This document shows, piece after piece, positions 6,370 to 10,886 of a DNA stretch of 17,890 nucleotides. The position numbers and the translations under genes are program-made. Where the stretch lies: the UHGV virus genome UHGV-0122684. One strand, written 5' to 3'. Positions within the stretch are counted from its first letter, which is position 1, and every line of letters starts with the position of its first letter. This DNA comes from a virus. The notes under the pieces were generated by a model. It ran no database searches and had not been told where the DNA came from. It saw only the letters and a list, made by a program, of their open reading frames with translations.

Positions 6370-6768
6370 TCAACCCACAGCTGGACATATAACCACCTCT
6401 TTTTTATATGCCGTTATGGTTATCTCAACTTTTCCCTTCGGTACTATCGGTCCCCATTCCACCAGCATGCGCTTAATCTGGCTGTCGTCTTCCCAGACAC
6501 CCGCATGCGTCAGCGCGTCAAACAGGGCTTTGTTGTAATTATCGATATCCCGGCGGCGAGCATCCGGCGGGTACAGCGTGATTTCTACCGCTGCCAGTTC
6601 AGTCGATGGCTTCGGGAGACGTCGTAATTGCTCAATGATCGCCACGCAGGCAGCGCTCTGGTATTTACGGCCATCAGCGCTAATGAGGTGACGACCGGCC
6701 AGCGGCCCCTTGTTAGGGGCGCGCCAGTAAGTGTTCACGCTCGGAGGAAAAGGCAGGACCAGTTTCAC
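6370..6768 (-). CDS. rusA: RusA-family Holliday junction resolvase
   Basis: 132-aa ORF beginning MKLVLPFPPSVNTYW, the characteristic RusA N-terminal motif, with acidic residues further on (DIDNYNKALFDAL). Start overlaps the stop of the upstream 439-aa gene. Confidence 0.85.
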   Translation of the reverse strand: MKLVLPFPPSVNTYWRAPNKGPLAGRHLISADGRKYQSAACVAIIEQLRRLPKPSTELAAVEITLYPPDARRRDIDNYNKALFDALTHAGVWEDDSQIKRMLVEWGPIVPKGKVEITITAYKKEVVICPAVG

Positions 6769-8084
6769 GCGGCCTCTCCCCGCATATTGCGAACAAGTTC
6801 AGAAGCAGCAGTAATGATTTCGCTGGTGGCAGTCCGCTCCAGCCAGAGTTGATTGATATTGGCTTTCAGCTTGTGTTGCAGTGACTCATCCAGCATGTCA
6901 GCACCATCCACCTGGTCGAATACAATTCTAACCTCCAGCGGCCAGATACGGGACTCGGGAAGCGGATCCGATACTGGTTTAGCTTTCTCACGAATGTGCA
7001 TGCGGATCTGGCGAATATTGGACCAACTGGAAACATCCAGGCTTCCCATGGCTGCAATGAAGTCAGTGCTGTTCATGCCATATTCACCGGATGCTTCAAG
7101 GGCAACAGTGCGAATACGTTCCGACATATCCAGGCGCACAGCAGCGTCATCGAATTCAATCGACAACAGCCACTCATCCACACCGAACAAAATACTCTCA
7201 CGAATAAGCAGCTTCGCTTTGTCGATCGTTAAAGGTGATACCTGAGTGAATTCCGGTGCTTCGACAGAATCCGCCGCCCAGGTATGCCCAAACTTCGATT
7301 CACTGAATGTGTATTCTTCTTTATCGCCAAACGCAGCTCTAACGCATGCCCACGCCTCGACACCGCTGATAGCAAAAATATCTTTCTGGGTGAGTGGCAA
7401 CTCTGCTTCTGGCTTATCAGCTGCAGGAGGTCTGGCAGTTACAGGTTGAGACTTGCTGGCAGCAAATTGTGGCAAAGCCATAAACGCCCGCCCTTTTGCC
7501 TCCAGTTCTGTGCGGTTGATATAGCTGAACCGCTCGCCACGCCATGACTTATCGAATACAGCTATGGCACCGGCAAAAAACGCGCTGGTGGGCTTCTGTT
7601 TTTCGTCAGCCGGTATAAACCACACAGGCAGATCGAACCCAATGCGCCCGCGAATGAATACAATGTGATCGGCATCTTCCGGCCACCACGTTTCACTCGG
7701 CGCGGCTTTTATCAGGAATACATAGCGACCGCCCTTCTCGCGCTGGGCTGCTGCGTACTTCATGATGTGCGTCATACCAGTGATCGCCTGTTTCTCGTGA
7801 TACTGCGAACGGCTATACTGTGGGTTGCCATAACCAGCGCCACCCAGTTCTGTAAGACGTTCAGACCAGTCCTGCGTCAGCGCGTTATCTTCGGCGGTGT
7901 ACCATGCCGGGCATTTCGCGTTGTCGTCGTCAGCAAACAAGTCCAGAACTAATGGACCAAATAGTGCGTTGATCCCCCAAAACAGCAGATCCGGTGTTCG
8001 CCACTGATCGCCAACTTCTTTCAATTCGTGAGCTGGTTTACTGCGCAGTTCTGCCAGCGCCTGGCAATATTTATTTGGCATCAT
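6765..8084 (-). CDS. protein with N-terminal phage Dam-like N6-adenine methyltransferase fold and long C-terminal extension
   Basis: 439-aa ORF translationally coupled to the O-like gene (ATGA overlap at 8081-8084). N-terminal about 180 aa read WRTPDLLFWGINALFGPLVLDLFADDDNAKCPAWYTAEDNALTQDW ... GYGNPQYS ... VFLIKAAPSETWWPED ... IVFIRGRIGF, matching the small phage Dam-family pattern as I recall it, but with NPQY where NPPY/DPPY is expected. No Walker A motif seen, so it does not look like a helicase or helicase loader. Confidence 0.65.
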   Translation of the reverse strand: MMPNKYCQALAELRSKPAHELKEVGDQWRTPDLLFWGINALFGPLVLDLFADDDNAKCPAWYTAEDNALTQDWSERLTELGGAGYGNPQYSRSQYHEKQAITGMTHIMKYAAAQREKGGRYVFLIKAAPSETWWPEDADHIVFIRGRIGFDLPVWFIPADEKQKPTSAFFAGAIAVFDKSWRGERFSYINRTELEAKGRAFMALPQFAASKSQPVTARPPAADKPEAELPLTQKDIFAISGVEAWACVRAAFGDKEEYTFSESKFGHTWAADSVEAPEFTQVSPLTIDKAKLLIRESILFGVDEWLLSIEFDDAAVRLDMSERIRTVALEASGEYGMNSTDFIAAMGSLDVSSWSNIRQIRMHIREKAKPVSDPLPESRIWPLEVRIVFDQVDGADMLDESLQHKLKANINQLWLERTATSEIITAASELVRNMRGEAA

Positions 8085-8947
8085 GAGCGGAACCCCGAAT
8101 TTTCTGGAAGTGAGTAGTCAACATTTTGGAAGCTTGCGCGGCTGGCTGAGTTAGCCGTCCATTTACCGTTAACGCGCTCAGGTCGCCCAGCGGCAGACCA
8201 TTTGGTCGCGCTTTGCAGGTAACCAGGGAAGTTTTTTGGAATAAACAGAGTTGCCGGACGGAGATATTGAGCCTGCTCGCTATCACGCCAATCAGCGTTT
8301 TTGTAATCCACCACAAGGCACAGATCATCAACAGTGAACCGTTCCCGCAGACGGGCACGAATATTCTCCAGCGACGTGCTGCATACCTGATAGCGTGAAC
8401 CAGTTGTCTGGTTCAGGTAAGACAAAACCTGTCTTGCCTGATCAGTAATCACAATCTCAGGGTCGGGTTGCGCCGCAACCGGACAAGAGGGTTTTGAAGT
8501 TACTTGTGGATCTTGTTTTGATTTTACTGACGGATCCCCGCCAGATTCTGACGGGTCAAAACCGCCGTTTTTGACGGATTTCGACGGGTCAGTTTTTGAG
8601 GCGTCAAAATTTGATGCGTCAGATTTTGACGTGTCAGAATCTGACAGTTGAGAAAATGCGGCAGCCTGAAGTTTCGCCACATTCAGGCGGTATACGTTCG
8701 AAGCATTACGGTTACCATTACGGCGCTGTGTACGCGTGAGCCAGCCATCTTTTTCAAGCTTTGCGATTGCCGTTCTGATAGTGCTCGGGCCTGCGCCAAG
8801 CTGGCGAGCAATAGTTTCAATTGACGGCCAGCATACGCCCTCATCACTGCTGAAATCAGCGAGTCGAGCCATGATCGCGACACTAGACAACTTCATGCCC
8901 GACGCCGCGCAACCATCCCATACGTAGCCGGTTAATTTAGTGCTCAT
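8081..8947 (-). CDS. replication initiator (O-like: N-terminal HTH, C-terminal conserved phage replication domain)
   Basis: 288-aa ORF. N-terminal winged-HTH (LSSVAIMARLADFSSDEGVCWPSIETIARQLGAGPSTIRTAIAKLEKDGWL). C-terminal YLRPATLF...NFPGYL motif, which I recall as the conserved C-terminus of phage replication-organiser proteins. The middle of the gene carries iteron-like direct repeats. SD AGGGAG precedes the ATG at 8945-8947. Confidence 0.8.
   Translation of the reverse strand: MSTKLTGYVWDGCAASGMKLSSVAIMARLADFSSDEGVCWPSIETIARQLGAGPSTIRTAIAKLEKDGWLTRTQRRNGNRNASNVYRLNVAKLQAAAFSQLSDSDTSKSDASNFDASKTDPSKSVKNGGFDPSESGGDPSVKSKQDPQVTSKPSCPVAAQPDPEIVITDQARQVLSYLNQTTGSRYQVCSTSLENIRARLRERFTVDDLCLVVDYKNADWRDSEQAQYLRPATLFIPKNFPGYLQSATKWSAAGRPERVNGKWTANSASRASFQNVDYSLPENSGFRS
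8527..8650. repeat. iteron-like direct repeats (candidate replication origin) inside the O-like gene
   Basis: At least seven imperfect copies of TGACGGGTCA-like units spaced 11-20 bp apart (tgacggatcc, tgacgggtcaaaa, ttgacggatttc, gacgggtcag, gcgtcaaaa, gatgcgtcag, tgacgtgtcag, ctgacag). They encode the low-complexity SD/SK-rich linker of the protein, as lambda ori iterons do within O. Confidence 0.55.
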
Positions 8948-9288
8948 GATCGTCCGTTATCTCCCTGAATTTTTGCCTGAAATGCTCAAGTGGGCTGAAG
9001 CATTCGTGCGGGTAGCCATCACGCAGATAGATAACGCGCTGTGTTTCTGGCTCCCAGCGGATAACACGGACTGGCACTCCACGGTGGTCTTTGAACCTTC
9101 GGTTAAGTTCGCGCACAGGCGTTTTGCCCTCCGGTTGTAGACCCCCACAATTGAAACCGCCCTACTGTGGTTACACGGAACCCAGCGGTTTGATAATCTG
9201 CGTTCATACCGAAACAACGGAGTACCCGAAACCGGGATCATCCTGAGTTGCGGTAGACGGTTAAAAGCCGTTACACTGCTCATGCGGA

Positions 9289-9840
9289 TTATTTCTCCAT
9301 ACTCGAAGAGTTGTTCGCCAAGGCGCCCGGAGCTGCACACTCGCGGGCGTCACTCTTTTCTGGAAGGCAATAAACTCGTGAAATCAGGTTCAGAAACGTC
9401 ATAAGCGTTACCCGGAACTGGTAGGCGATTTCATTCAGACTGTCCCACTCCCCTTTATCAACTACACCATCATCGATGTATCGACGGTATGCGTTGACCA
9501 GATCCCCAAGCCTGCCCACCAGCTCAGCCAGCTTTAAGCCAATTTCTTCGTTCTCTGTTTCTGGTTCTGCGCCAGGGATATGAATCCCGTTATCTGTTTG
9601 ACGAGAAAACGCATCTGCTATGTAGCTAACACCGGCGGCTTTCTGTAGCACCATCGCCCATCCCATAGGGAAGATCTGATCCCCATCCACACGAAGGCGG
9701 TTAAACAATGCGTTCTCTGTCACGCCCAACCATTCCGCAGCTTCGGCGTAGCCACCAGGCAGATCGGTAATCGTCTTTTTAATCGCGACCACCAGCCAGG
9801 CTGGCTGACGTTCAACTTTCCAAATAGGTTCGTTACCCAC
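9289..9840 (-). CDS. CII-like transcriptional regulator (HTH protein immediately downstream of cro)
   Basis: 183-aa ORF starting at a GTG (9838-9840) with SD AAGGGG, 10 nt after the cro stop. HTH-like segment YAEAAEWLGVTENALFNRL. Its position (cro, then this gene, then the replication initiator) matches cII. Family assignment is tentative. Confidence 0.55.
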   Translation of the reverse strand: MGNEPIWKVERQPAWLVVAIKKTITDLPGGYAEAAEWLGVTENALFNRLRVDGDQIFPMGWAMVLQKAAGVSYIADAFSRQTDNGIHIPGAEPETENEEIGLKLAELVGRLGDLVNAYRRYIDDGVVDKGEWDSLNEIAYQFRVTLMTFLNLISRVYCLPEKSDARECAAPGALANNSSSMEK

Positions 9841-9850
9841 GGTTAACCCC

Positions 9851-10096
9851 TTATTCCTGTGGTTTTATGTCTGTACTAACGCCTGTACAGTTCGAATAGC
9901 GATGTGGATAAAGGATTTCTAGCTCATTGATTTTTCCCGAGAAGAAACGGACTAGACGTTCAGCAATATCTAGGGAAGCAATTTGCTGCCCTCGCTCTAT
10001 CCGACTTAGATTTCCCGGGTCGATATCAACCCCTTTTGCTACATAGGAAAGAGTCATACCTTGCGATTTACGCAAGATTCGTAACGGTGATTGCAT
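9851..10096 (-). CDS. cro: Cro-like repressor (XRE-family HTH)
   Basis: 81-aa ORF divergent from cI, with perfect SD AAGGAGGG upstream of the ATG at 10094-10096. HTH segment QGMTLSYVAKGVDIDPGNLSRIERGQ. Confidence 0.8.
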   Translation of the reverse strand: MQSPLRILRKSQGMTLSYVAKGVDIDPGNLSRIERGQQIASLDIAERLVRFFSGKINELEILYPHRYSNCTGVSTDIKPQE

Positions 10097-10193
10097 ATAC
10101 CCTCCTTTAATTGCGTAAAACGCATATTAATTGGAACATACGACTTGCGCAAGTTGCTTTGCACATCACGCAAAAAAAACATGTAATAGACGC
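10097..10193. promoter_or_regulatory. OR-like operator/promoter region (divergent pR and pRM candidates, repressor operators)
   Basis: Inverted repeats with TTGCG/CGCAA half-sites: TTGCGTAAAACGCA (10111-10124), CTTGCGCAAG (10145-10154), TTGCACATCACGCAA (10159-10173). Candidate pR on the minus strand is TTGCGC (plus 10147-10152), 17-nt spacer, TAATAT (plus 10124-10129). Candidate pRM on the plus strand is TTGCAC (10159-10164), 17-nt spacer, TGTAAT (10182-10187), ending 6 nt before the cI ATG, which implies a leaderless cI mRNA as at lambda pRM. Confidence 0.6.
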
Positions 10194-10886
10194 ATGAACA
10201 TAGGAAACCGCATAAGAGAACTTCGCACTGCGAAGGGTCTAAAAATCGCTGATCTTGCTGAAGCCGTTGGTGTCGACGGAGCGAACATCTCGCGCGTAGA
10301 AACCGGCAAACAGAAGTCATTTACTGAACAATCACTTAGCAAATATGCTCAAGCTTTAGGCGTTAGCGTTGCTGATCTATTTACTCCAGAAGGAAATAAA
10401 ACTACTGTATGTGAATACAGTGGTAGTAACCCACATTCTGGAGATGGATCTGTGTTTAGAGTGGAGATTCTTGATGTAAGTGCCAGCGCTGGTGGTGGAT
10501 TTATTCAAGGCAGCGATATTATTGATGTCATCAGGTCAATCGAATACAACAATGAACGTGCACTAGCGATGTTCGGCGGAAGAACGGCAGATCAAGTAAA
10601 AGTAATCAACGTTCGAGGCGACAGTATGGCTGAGACAATTGAACCTGGTGATCTTCTCTTCGTTGATATCTCTATTCATGAATTCGATGGTGATGGAATA
10701 TATGTATTTGGTTTTGATGATAAAATTTACGTCAAACGATTACAGATGATACCTGATATGTTGTTGGTTATATCGGATAACCCAAAATATAGAGAATGGT
10801 CTGTGGACGAGACAAACGAACACCGTTTTTACATTTTTGGGAAAGTAATGATAAGCCAATCTCAATCATTCAAACGCCACGCCTGA
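10194..10886 (+). CDS. cI: CI-like repressor (N-terminal XRE HTH, C-terminal S24 LexA-like autopeptidase domain)
   Basis: Translation from the ATG at 10194: MNIGNRIRELRTAKGLKIADLAEAVGVDGANISRVETGK (HTH), with C-terminal VRGDSM (Ser nucleophile) and VKRL (Lys) motifs of RecA-stimulated self-cleaving repressors. The ORF-track version starts at an upstream TTG (10131) inside the operator region, which is unlikely to be the real start. Confidence 0.9.
   Translation: MNIGNRIRELRTAKGLKIADLAEAVGVDGANISRVETGKQKSFTEQSLSKYAQALGVSVADLFTPEGNKTTVCEYSGSNPHSGDGSVFRVEILDVSASAGGGFIQGSDIIDVIRSIEYNNERALAMFGGRTADQVKVINVRGDSMAETIEPGDLLFVDISIHEFDGDGIYVFGFDDKIYVKRLQMIPDMLLVISDNPKYREWSVDETNEHRFYIFGKVMISQSQSFKRHA

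Follow-up and report, generated by a model that had tools for sequence, protein, structure and literature searches.

The stretch analysed here, referred to as the window, is the whole 17,890 nt of DNA from the virus genome UHGV-0122684, and the locus of concern is the junction between a cII-like gene (ymfL) and the replication gene downstream of it. This part of the window corresponds to the early region of a lambdoid prophage of the e14 type, in which the early-right operon lies on the minus strand in the order cro, ymfL (cII-like), ymfM, DUF4222, and replication gene. The stop codon of ymfL (gene at 9289–9840, minus strand) and the start codon of the replication initiator gene (8081–8947, minus strand) are separated by 341 nt (8948–9288). 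An initial annotation, made from the sequence alone, treated this interval as a cII–O intergenic region with a junk-like 108-aa open reading frame (ORF) on the minus strand, a more protein-like 66-aa ORF on the plus strand, and a weak hairpin nearby; these features, along with ymfL and the replication gene, are all present where it placed them. The interval itself is not intergenic: 8948–9288 is fully protein-coding on the minus strand, and a 59-aa DUF4222 gene had been missed. We consider it probable that the ‘gap’ holds three superimposed elements, namely a ymfM-like gene, the DUF4222 gene, and an antisense RNA; a single level of confidence, good but well short of certainty, applies jointly to this anatomy and to the mechanism proposed for it below.

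The gene upstream of the junction matches the YmfL-family model of NCBIfam (NF041471, phage_reg_YmfL; 134 bits against a cut-off of 90) and the CII-like transcriptional activator family phrog_101 (E 1e-42); in the Pfam search, its match to Phage_CP76 was below the cut-off. Its last ~60 nt carry the terminator of the antisense RNA on the opposite strand. The replication initiator gene has Pfam and PHROG matches (HTH_36 + Phg_2220_C). In the closest Escherichia coli matches, the NCBI annotation pipeline (PGAP) applies the labels ‘YmfL family putative regulatory protein’, ‘DUF4222 domain-containing protein’, and ‘conserved phage C-terminal domain-containing protein’. A related locus was matched in 2611 of 5426 complete E. 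coli genomes, and the gene order in the e14 prophage of E. coli K-12 is identical (ymfK, ymfT, ymfL, ymfM, ymfN/oweE). The comparison set comprised 90 related loci, drawn from genomes and IMG/VR contigs, to which ~200 more distant loci were later added.

The 108-aa minus-strand ORF (8957–9283; the length includes the stop codon) fills the interval as had been described, with its ATG (9283–9281) 5 nt past the ymfL stop codon and its stop codon (8959–8957) 9 nt before the replication gene ATG; a Shine–Dalgarno (SD) sequence, GGAGA, is located at 9298–9294. Its dismissal as junk does not hold. The ORF encodes a YmfM homologue, matching phrog_1170 (E 1.1e-16 over residues 1–107) and K-12 YmfM (b1148; BLASTP, 37% identity, E 2e-14), and it occupies the same position as K-12 ymfM, between ymfL and the replication gene. 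Searches of Pfam and NCBIfam returned no model for it. Over the first 54 codons (9283–9122), which lie outside the overlap with DUF4222, the ratio of nonsynonymous to synonymous substitution rates (dN/dS) is 0.14–0.34 in the ORF's own frame versus ~1–3 in the other two frames, and the N-terminal half of YmfM is under purifying selection. AlphaFold confidently predicts a domain of three strands plus a helix in this half (predicted local distance difference test, pLDDT, of 84–93 for residues 11–60, as 10-residue block means), followed by a tail predicted to be disordered (pLDDT ~41, residues 66–105). The product is Ser/Arg-rich, without a hydrophobic segment, and only its C-terminal half resembles junk: the Ser/Arg-rich portion coincides exactly with the part that is overprinted in the +1 frame on DUF4222. 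All enterobacterial relatives keep the YmfM frame open for 108–114 codons. A Foldseek search of the YmfM model against the PDB returned nothing (best E 2.4), as did PDB sequence searches with YmfM and DUF4222, so that neither protein gained a fold-based functional clue. Among relatives, N-domain subtypes (K-12-like, ST64B-like, and Kosakonia-like) are joined to a nearly identical DUF4222/tail segment (proteins P0031–P0035 compared with the window); judged from these sequences, the mixture of subtypes would indicate modular recombination at the N-domain/DUF4222 boundary.

The DUF4222 gene (8937–9116, minus strand; 59 aa) is read on the same strand as the YmfM tail, one base out of register with it. 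Its product matches Pfam PF13973 (E 4e-17; 61.9 bits against a cut-off of 27; profile positions 5–52 of 53) and phrog_1343 (E 1.5e-33). Translation would begin at a GTG behind an SD sequence of its own (GGAGG, 9132–9128), and the stop codon lies just downstream of the replication gene ATG, giving an overlap of 11 nt with the start of that gene. The frame is intact in all loci and has a dN/dS of 0.07 (with dS saturated); every relative has its own SD sequence plus its own ATG, GTG, or TTG start, which is ATG in 41 of 70 distinct relatives. The N-domain of YmfM and DUF4222 are both real genes. K-12 ymfM also holds an intact, unannotated DUF4222 ORF (locus L003, 4002–4181; NC_000913.3 1204001–1204180), with a TTG start behind AAGGAG and 85% protein identity to the window copy.

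The YmfM N-domain corresponds to codons 1–55 (9283–9119), and the remainder of the frame (9116–8957) is read in the +1 frame over DUF4222. Within this overlap, the YmfM frame has a dN/dS of ~2.2, with no amino acid constraint, compared with 0.07 for the DUF4222 frame, and the YmfM-frame stop codon (+157), 9 nt before the replication ATG, is invariant among relatives. Across a 40-codon core, the +1 frame is open in all 89 distinct e14/ST64B/Stx-type sequences, and the +2 frame in four of them. In Fraca-type DUF4222 genes, which are found without ymfL, ymfM, or the RNA, the +1 frame is open in 4 of 39, which is at chance level (resampling expectation ~0.17). The expectation was obtained by resampling synonymous DUF4222 codons with local codon usage; in such trials, the +1 frame stays open over the 52 overlapping codons in 2–6% of cases, and the corresponding chance for just the 40-codon core is 0.11–0.22. 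Every one of the lineages separated by pairwise dS of 1–3 keeps the +1 frame open. At the strict risk codons (4, 18, and 28), where synonyms ending in A or G would introduce a +1 stop codon, solely T- or C-ending codons occur, turning over among themselves (CTT/CTC, GTT/GTC); codons ending in A or G are found at each of the 14 non-risk fourfold sites (e.g., Leu31, CTG in 62 of 70; Val14, GTG in 31 of 46). This pattern suggests that stop codons in the YmfM tail frame are selected against. The overprinted tail is probably kept open, its amino acid sequence not being what matters, and openness perhaps couples translation to the next gene.

The arrangement of the two frames varies among relatives. 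In Providencia- and Yersinia-type loci, the +1 frame is likewise open, and the N-domain is a separate ORF of 58–70 aa in the other frame. The stand-alone N-domain of Providencia-type loci (L013, 1281–1487; L100–L119) stops 8–44 nt past the DUF4222 start, and in L013 an additional +1-frame ORF starts at an overlapping TAATG. In ST64B, SfV, and mEp460, the YmfM frame continues into a Rha-family regulator to give one annotated ORF of ~385 aa, as in ST64B sb41 (L094, 758–1915) and mEp460 (L095, 752–1903), with an unannotated DUF4222 ORF inside it in another frame. A programmed frameshift fusing the N-domain to DUF4222 was considered and rejected: no conserved slippery site was seen by eye, and DUF4222 has its own SD sequence and start everywhere. 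A few isolated database proteins (P0022, P0024, and P0028) start in the YmfM frame and switch to the DUF4222 frame (P0022, from Enterobacter cloacae, has 114 aa and a Pfam DUF4222 match); these switches are probably indels or assembly errors.

The third element is carried by the plus strand. A covariance model derived from the homologue alignment (R1) has one match in the window, at 9276–9375 (117.7 bits; next best 14 bits), opposite the ymfL stop codon (9289–9291) and the ymfM ATG (9281–9283). The predicted product is a cis-antisense RNA of ~80 nt (9281–9361, plus strand), homologous to ECS003 of K-12, with its 5′ end opposite the ymfM ATG and an anti-SD sequence (UCUCC) at 9294–9298. RNAalifold predicts a 5′ stem-loop (9284–9318), in which 9284–9287 pairs with 9315–9318 and the loop holds the anti-SD, followed by an intrinsic-terminator-like hairpin (9322–9361) with a 5′ arm at 9322–9332, a loop at 9333–9339, a 3′ arm at 9340–9342 and 9344–9351 interrupted by a bulged G (9343), and a U-rich run at 9352–9361. 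The hairpin and T-rich run had thus been correctly noticed, whereas the description of the hairpin as weak was mistaken: the 11-bp bulged stem, the same as that predicted when 38 distinct homologues were aligned, shows 100% pairing across the cells of that alignment, with compensatory changes at four pairs (C-G to G-C, C-G to A-U, and GAG/CUC to AGG/CCU). On four of five measures, all 500 shuffles fell short of the observed values, and controls in which the partner strand was slid by 1–3 columns were 35–54% paired. Two wider sets show covariation at 8 of 11 and 7 of 11 pairs of the hairpin and also in the 4-bp 5′ helix that closes the anti-SD loop; for the RNA structure, covariation extends across more than 80 distinct sequences. 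In the 5′ stem, one pair occurs as GU, UA, or GC in alignment A1, and all four pairs show compensatory changes in alignment A2; being short, this stem is less strongly supported than the terminator. The fold of the whole RNA is predicted at -27.2 kcal/mol.

R1 matches every one of the loci from ymfL-containing clades (80 of 80 and 40 of 40) and none of 80 Fraca-type loci. The model also matches K-12 (97.3 bits), ST64B, and mEp460, and, more weakly, Providencia and Yersinia phages. Rfam gave no match, either for the whole window at gathering thresholds or for 9150–9450 at E up to 10, and the bulge in the stem caused a simple terminator scan to overlook the hairpin. In phages of the Yersinia YeP3 type (L098, L260–L299), the hairpin is a perfect 12-bp stem in YeP3 itself (L098), and many copies are without a U-run; in such U-run-less phages, it may not be an intrinsic terminator. 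On the strength of these comparisons, the window probably encodes a structured plus-strand antisense RNA, which would be expressed in this phage.

A putative sigma-70 promoter for this RNA is present at 9248–9277 (plus strand), with a -35 element TTGCGG (9248–9253), an 18-nt spacer, and a -10 element TACACT (9272–9277). It is embedded in ymfM codons 2–12 and places the transcription start at ~9281, the complement of the ymfM ATG. The pattern TTGCnn-18-TAnAnT is conserved in e14-, ST64B-, Providencia-, and Yersinia-type relatives despite differing spacers and encoded peptides, and the synonymous positions of ymfM Ser3 (AGT) and Leu4 (TTA) are invariant. In K-12, genomic SELEX (gSELEX) identified a constitutive ‘internal promoter’ of the RpoD holoenzyme between ymfL and ymfM (Shimada et al., 2014; PMC3946193). 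The plus-strand promoter had instead been anticipated around 8900–8940, near which a promoter scan found no promoter-like site. The only promoter-like site returned by that scan, at 9170–9197 (plus strand; GTTACA-16-GATAAT) inside ymfM, is unconserved among relatives and matches what chance would yield (1.7 expected); it was discarded.

An RNA of this kind has been detected in K-12. ECS003 was reported as the most abundant novel cis-antisense small RNA candidate with a predicted sigma-70 promoter; it is antisense to ymfL and ymfM, its sequence begins CAUGCGUUAGUUUCUCC, its 5′ end is the complement of the ymfM ATG, and its main block of reads spans 78 nt (Shinhara et al., 2011, BMC Genomics 12:428; PMC3175480). 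Northern blotting gave a band of ~70 nt that was constitutive under the conditions tested, and masking of the ymfM ribosome-binding site (RBS) was proposed by the same authors (Shinhara et al., 2011). The published sequence aligns column by column with the window RNA and, on that alignment, ECS003 is evidently its K-12 orthologue. The two share the ymfL/ymfM junction, the strand relationship, the 5′ end, the UCUCC anti-SD, the terminator hairpin, and the U-run, but they differ in the diverged sequence between the 5′ end and the hairpin; the -10 element is TACACT in the window compared with TAAACT in K-12, and the window is without an extended TG. The original description presented ECS003 as one candidate in K-12, assigning it no structure, family, or function, and Rfam does not include it. 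The suggestion in the initial annotation of an oop-like antisense transcript, possibly coding, is therefore upheld in its first part, by the detection of ECS003 in K-12 and the covarying structure; the RNA is not coding, and it excludes the 66-aa ORF.

The following mechanism is proposed. The sigma-70 promoter in the first ymfM codons would constitutively fire the ~80-nt structured RNA (~9281–9361), which would end at the hairpin and U-run within the ymfL 3′ end. There is perfect complementarity between this RNA and the ymfM start codon, the ymfM SD sequence GGAGA (9298–9294), and the last ~70 nt of ymfL, and the RNA therefore should pair with the early-right mRNA; pairing would occlude initiation at ymfM and/or create a substrate for duplex-dependent cleavage by RNase III, so that repression of ymfM by the RNA can be inferred. 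In a lysogen, the products of leaky transcription would be silenced in this way: the toxic division inhibitor, and perhaps also ymfL. After induction, the RNA would be out-titrated. YmfM would be translated from the ATG at 9283 as a folded N-domain of ~60 residues and a disordered tail of ~50 residues, with DUF4222 initiating independently at the GTG at 9116 and YmfM translation ending 9 nt before the replication ATG. The division inhibitor function is known from K-12, where ymfM (b1148) is annotated as ‘cell division inhibitor YmfM’: YmfM/SfiC is an SOS-inducible inhibitor encoded by e14, and the cloned ymfM ORF blocks Z-ring formation and accounts for SfiC (Ansari et al., 2020/2021; bioRxiv 10.1101/2020.11.19.390815).

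For the plus strand, the alternative advanced in the initial annotation was a longer transcript from ~8900–8940 that encodes the 66-aa protein and regulates the cII-like gene or O. The ORF (8940–9140, plus strand; GTG start) does exist, its composition is protein-like, and an antisense RNA is present nearby. However, it is not a gene but lies exactly antisense to DUF4222 and merely shadows it: codon positions 1, 2, and 3 of the ORF coincide with positions 3, 2, and 1 of DUF4222 codons, antisense frames of real genes are commonly open, and the protein-like appearance of the ORF is explained by its being the mirror image of a gene with a dN/dS of 0.07. Its own frame (a0) has a median dN/dS of 1.76, with internal stop codons in 38 of 75 distinct relatives (e.g., at codon 7 in the L007 clade and L008), and the same ORF is kept in only 12. 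The homologue comparison that the annotation had itself listed among possible refutations went against the ORF, with relatives disrupting the plus-strand frame and conserving the minus-strand frames. The ORF has no Pfam match and no RBS, the promoter scan found nothing suitable near 8900–8940, and the conserved RNA lies 140 nt from the 3′ end of the ORF and reads away from it; a coding transcript is close to refuted, with a probability that is almost negligible. A low dN/dS of 0.18 in another antisense frame (a1) was set aside as a known artefact of a frame sharing wobble positions with a real gene, and is not the frame of the 66-aa ORF. A different objection concedes the hairpin but places its action on the sense strand, in mRNA or DNA, making the antisense RNA incidental: the hairpin could be where RNase III or another activity processes the transcript, could signal pausing or attenuation between ymfL and ymfM, or could merely reflect a conserved YmfL peptide, DARECAAPG. 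Its pairs are mostly Watson–Crick, the sense RNA also folds (-25.5 kcal/mol), and the peptide is conserved in many relatives. Yet in half of the sequences pair 49–76 is a G.U that would be C.A on the sense strand, and in wider sets G.U or U.G occurs at ≥5 pairs, again C.A on the sense strand; only on the plus strand is the stem followed by the U-run. In L010, L011, L061, and L066, a 1-nt deletion in the loop turns the YmfL C-terminus DARECAAPG into DAGELQLPAS or DASELQLLAS, and compensatory changes nevertheless restore pairing; in Providencia, the hairpin lies in a non-coding spacer, outside any conserved ORF. Pairing that survives a YmfL frameshift, with G.U pairs valid on the plus strand only, argues for selection on the nucleic acid, and on that strand. 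Together with the abundance in K-12 of an RNA of the predicted size and ends, this makes a sense-strand role for the hairpin very unlikely, and an antisense RNA is preferred.

The minus-strand elements invite two further alternatives. One holds that only the ~60-aa N-domain of YmfM is functional, the 50-codon extension being an unselected accident of a lost stop codon with an inherited open frame. The lack of amino acid constraint and predicted disorder of the tail are in keeping with this, as are the stand-alone 58–70-aa N-domain protein of Providencia-type phages, the open +1 frame of Providencia- and YeP3-type genes in which it is unfused to the N-domain, and the chance at which the 40-codon core stays open on resampling. 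Against it stand the 89 distinct open sequences from lineages at pairwise dS of 1–3, the risk codons that swap just safe synonyms where other fourfold sites use all four bases, the invariant stop codon at +157, and the extension of the same frame into the Rha-family gene in ST64B, SfV, and mEp460; we regard an accidental extension as somewhat unlikely, though a serious contender, and retain the reading in which the tail is probably kept open. The other alternative concerns function, and ascribes all or part of the SfiC activity attributed to ymfM to the product of the embedded DUF4222 gene. The DUF4222 ORF was complete in the screen clone D1-8E; the insert of pBAD-ymfM, which is the annotated ORF, has the DUF4222 SD sequence (AAGGAG), the TTG start, and 53 of 59 codons; DUF4222 is far more conserved than YmfM; and the published work on ymfM (bioRxiv 10.1101/2020.11.19.390815) is silent on the overlap. 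In pBAD-ymfM, however, the vector SD drives the YmfM frame, and DUF4222 there would have a weak TTG start and no C-terminus, and the YmfM N-domain is itself selected and folded. A contribution of this sort is considered improbable, and YmfM is preferred as the source of the activity.

Several observations weigh against the explanation favoured here. For the RNA, the fold z-score is only -2.1, the U-run has just four consecutive U, and some relatives (L006, L042, and the YeP3 type) are without a U-run; the promoter copy in the window is weak (TTGCGG-18-TACACT, 6 of 12 consensus matches), and the promoter scan did not flag the copy at 9248–9277. No follow-up work on ECS003 was found in the literature searched. 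For YmfM, the N-domain in the window is just 30% identical to that of K-12 YmfM (pairwise E 3e-4), and a division inhibitor function for so diverged a protein would be an extrapolation from homology. The tail, with its dN/dS of ~2.2 and pLDDT of ~41, may be dispensable, because it is unconstrained and because the Providencia-type N-domain is a complete protein of 58–70 aa that stops at the DUF4222 start. Lastly, sequences within a clade are related, so that the open-frame counts do not represent independent events.

The nearest functional parallel to the antisense RNA is the oop RNA of phage lambda, a 77-nt transcript from the promoter pO that acts on cII mRNA in an RNase III-dependent manner. 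In lambda, cII is located at 38360–38653 and the O start at 38686, with the oop sequence between them on the opposite strand. Both RNAs have the promoter and 5′ end just past the cII-type gene, upstream of or at the start of the next gene, and the terminator inside the cII-type 3′ end, and they are similar in size (~77–80 nt). They differ in having no homology of sequence or structure (R1 scores 4.7 bits, E 0.54, on the lambda cII–O region), and YmfL is not a close homologue of CII, as reflected in its Pfam Phage_CP76 score. Moreover, the window RNA covers the SD sequence and AUG of the next gene, whereas oop starts 11 nt before the O start and does not cover the AGGAGT that immediately precedes that codon. 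Since R1 does not match lambda, the window RNA is an analogue of oop, not a homologue or family member.

The protein-coding layers also have counterparts. The window protein and K-12 YmfM/SfiC share position, length class (108 vs. 112 aa), phrog_1170, an alignable N-domain, and a tail overlying DUF4222, but at 37% identity overall and 30% in the N-domain they represent different subtypes. Overprinting of this general form is seen in phage genes nested in the +1 frame, among them lambda Rz/Rz1, in which Rz1 is read in the +1 frame and the two starts are independent; like the YmfM/DUF4222 pair, these are two proteins encoded on one strand of a lambdoid phage in different frames. In the window, the overlap is confined to the C-terminal half of the longer ORF, and what is conserved in this overprinted part is its openness, not its amino acids. 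With type I toxin–antitoxin systems such as hok/sok, the locus would share a constitutive cis-antisense RNA over the initiation region of a growth-arresting protein, the toxin and antitoxin roles being assigned here by analogy; it differs in that the product is not a small hydrophobic membrane peptide and in its location inside a repressor-controlled phage operon.

These parallels allow a broader reading, which we put forward tentatively as possible rather than probable, in which all three layers act together. The ECS003-like RNA would be the antitoxin-like off-switch of a phage division inhibitor, ymfM would be truly dual-coding with its tail kept open by selection, DUF4222 might contribute to the SfiC phenotype, and the ymfL–ymfM–DUF4222 junction would constitute a compact module across lambdoid prophages of Enterobacterales. 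The open tail would deliver YmfM-translating ribosomes to the replication start or, in the ST64B type, into the Rha-family protein.

The ECS003 RNA, the ymfM gene, and the DUF4222 family are already known, and the RNA is a new representative of an RNA kind that is known but has received little attention; the probable dual coding of YmfM and DUF4222, conserved among relatives, and the question of which product is SfiC, appear to be undescribed. The comparisons raise ECS003 from a candidate sequenced in a single strain to a covariation-supported RNA family, suitable for Rfam, that is present in phages of Escherichia, Citrobacter, Klebsiella, Enterobacter, Kosakonia, Salmonella, Shigella, Providencia, and Yersinia. 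This family is now linked to a putative target, YmfM/SfiC, whose function was found later, with the hypothesis that the RNA silences a toxic prophage gene. In K-12, b1148 hides a second, better-conserved gene, and the genetics of SfiC has not separated the two. The locus also shows how far a bare reading of ORFs can go astray: the convincing plus-strand ORF only mirrors a gene, the ORF dismissed as ‘junk’ is genuine, and the gene that is actually conserved has a GTG start.

The remaining genes of this region are a LexA/S24-type repressor (10131–10886, plus strand), a Cro-type helix-turn-helix (HTH) gene (9851–10096, minus strand), and a Dam methylase (6765–8084, minus strand). Within the replication initiator gene, at 8542–8654, there are six periodic repeats of ~15 nt with the partly palindromic core TTGACGnGTCA, which resemble origin iterons, as in lambda O.

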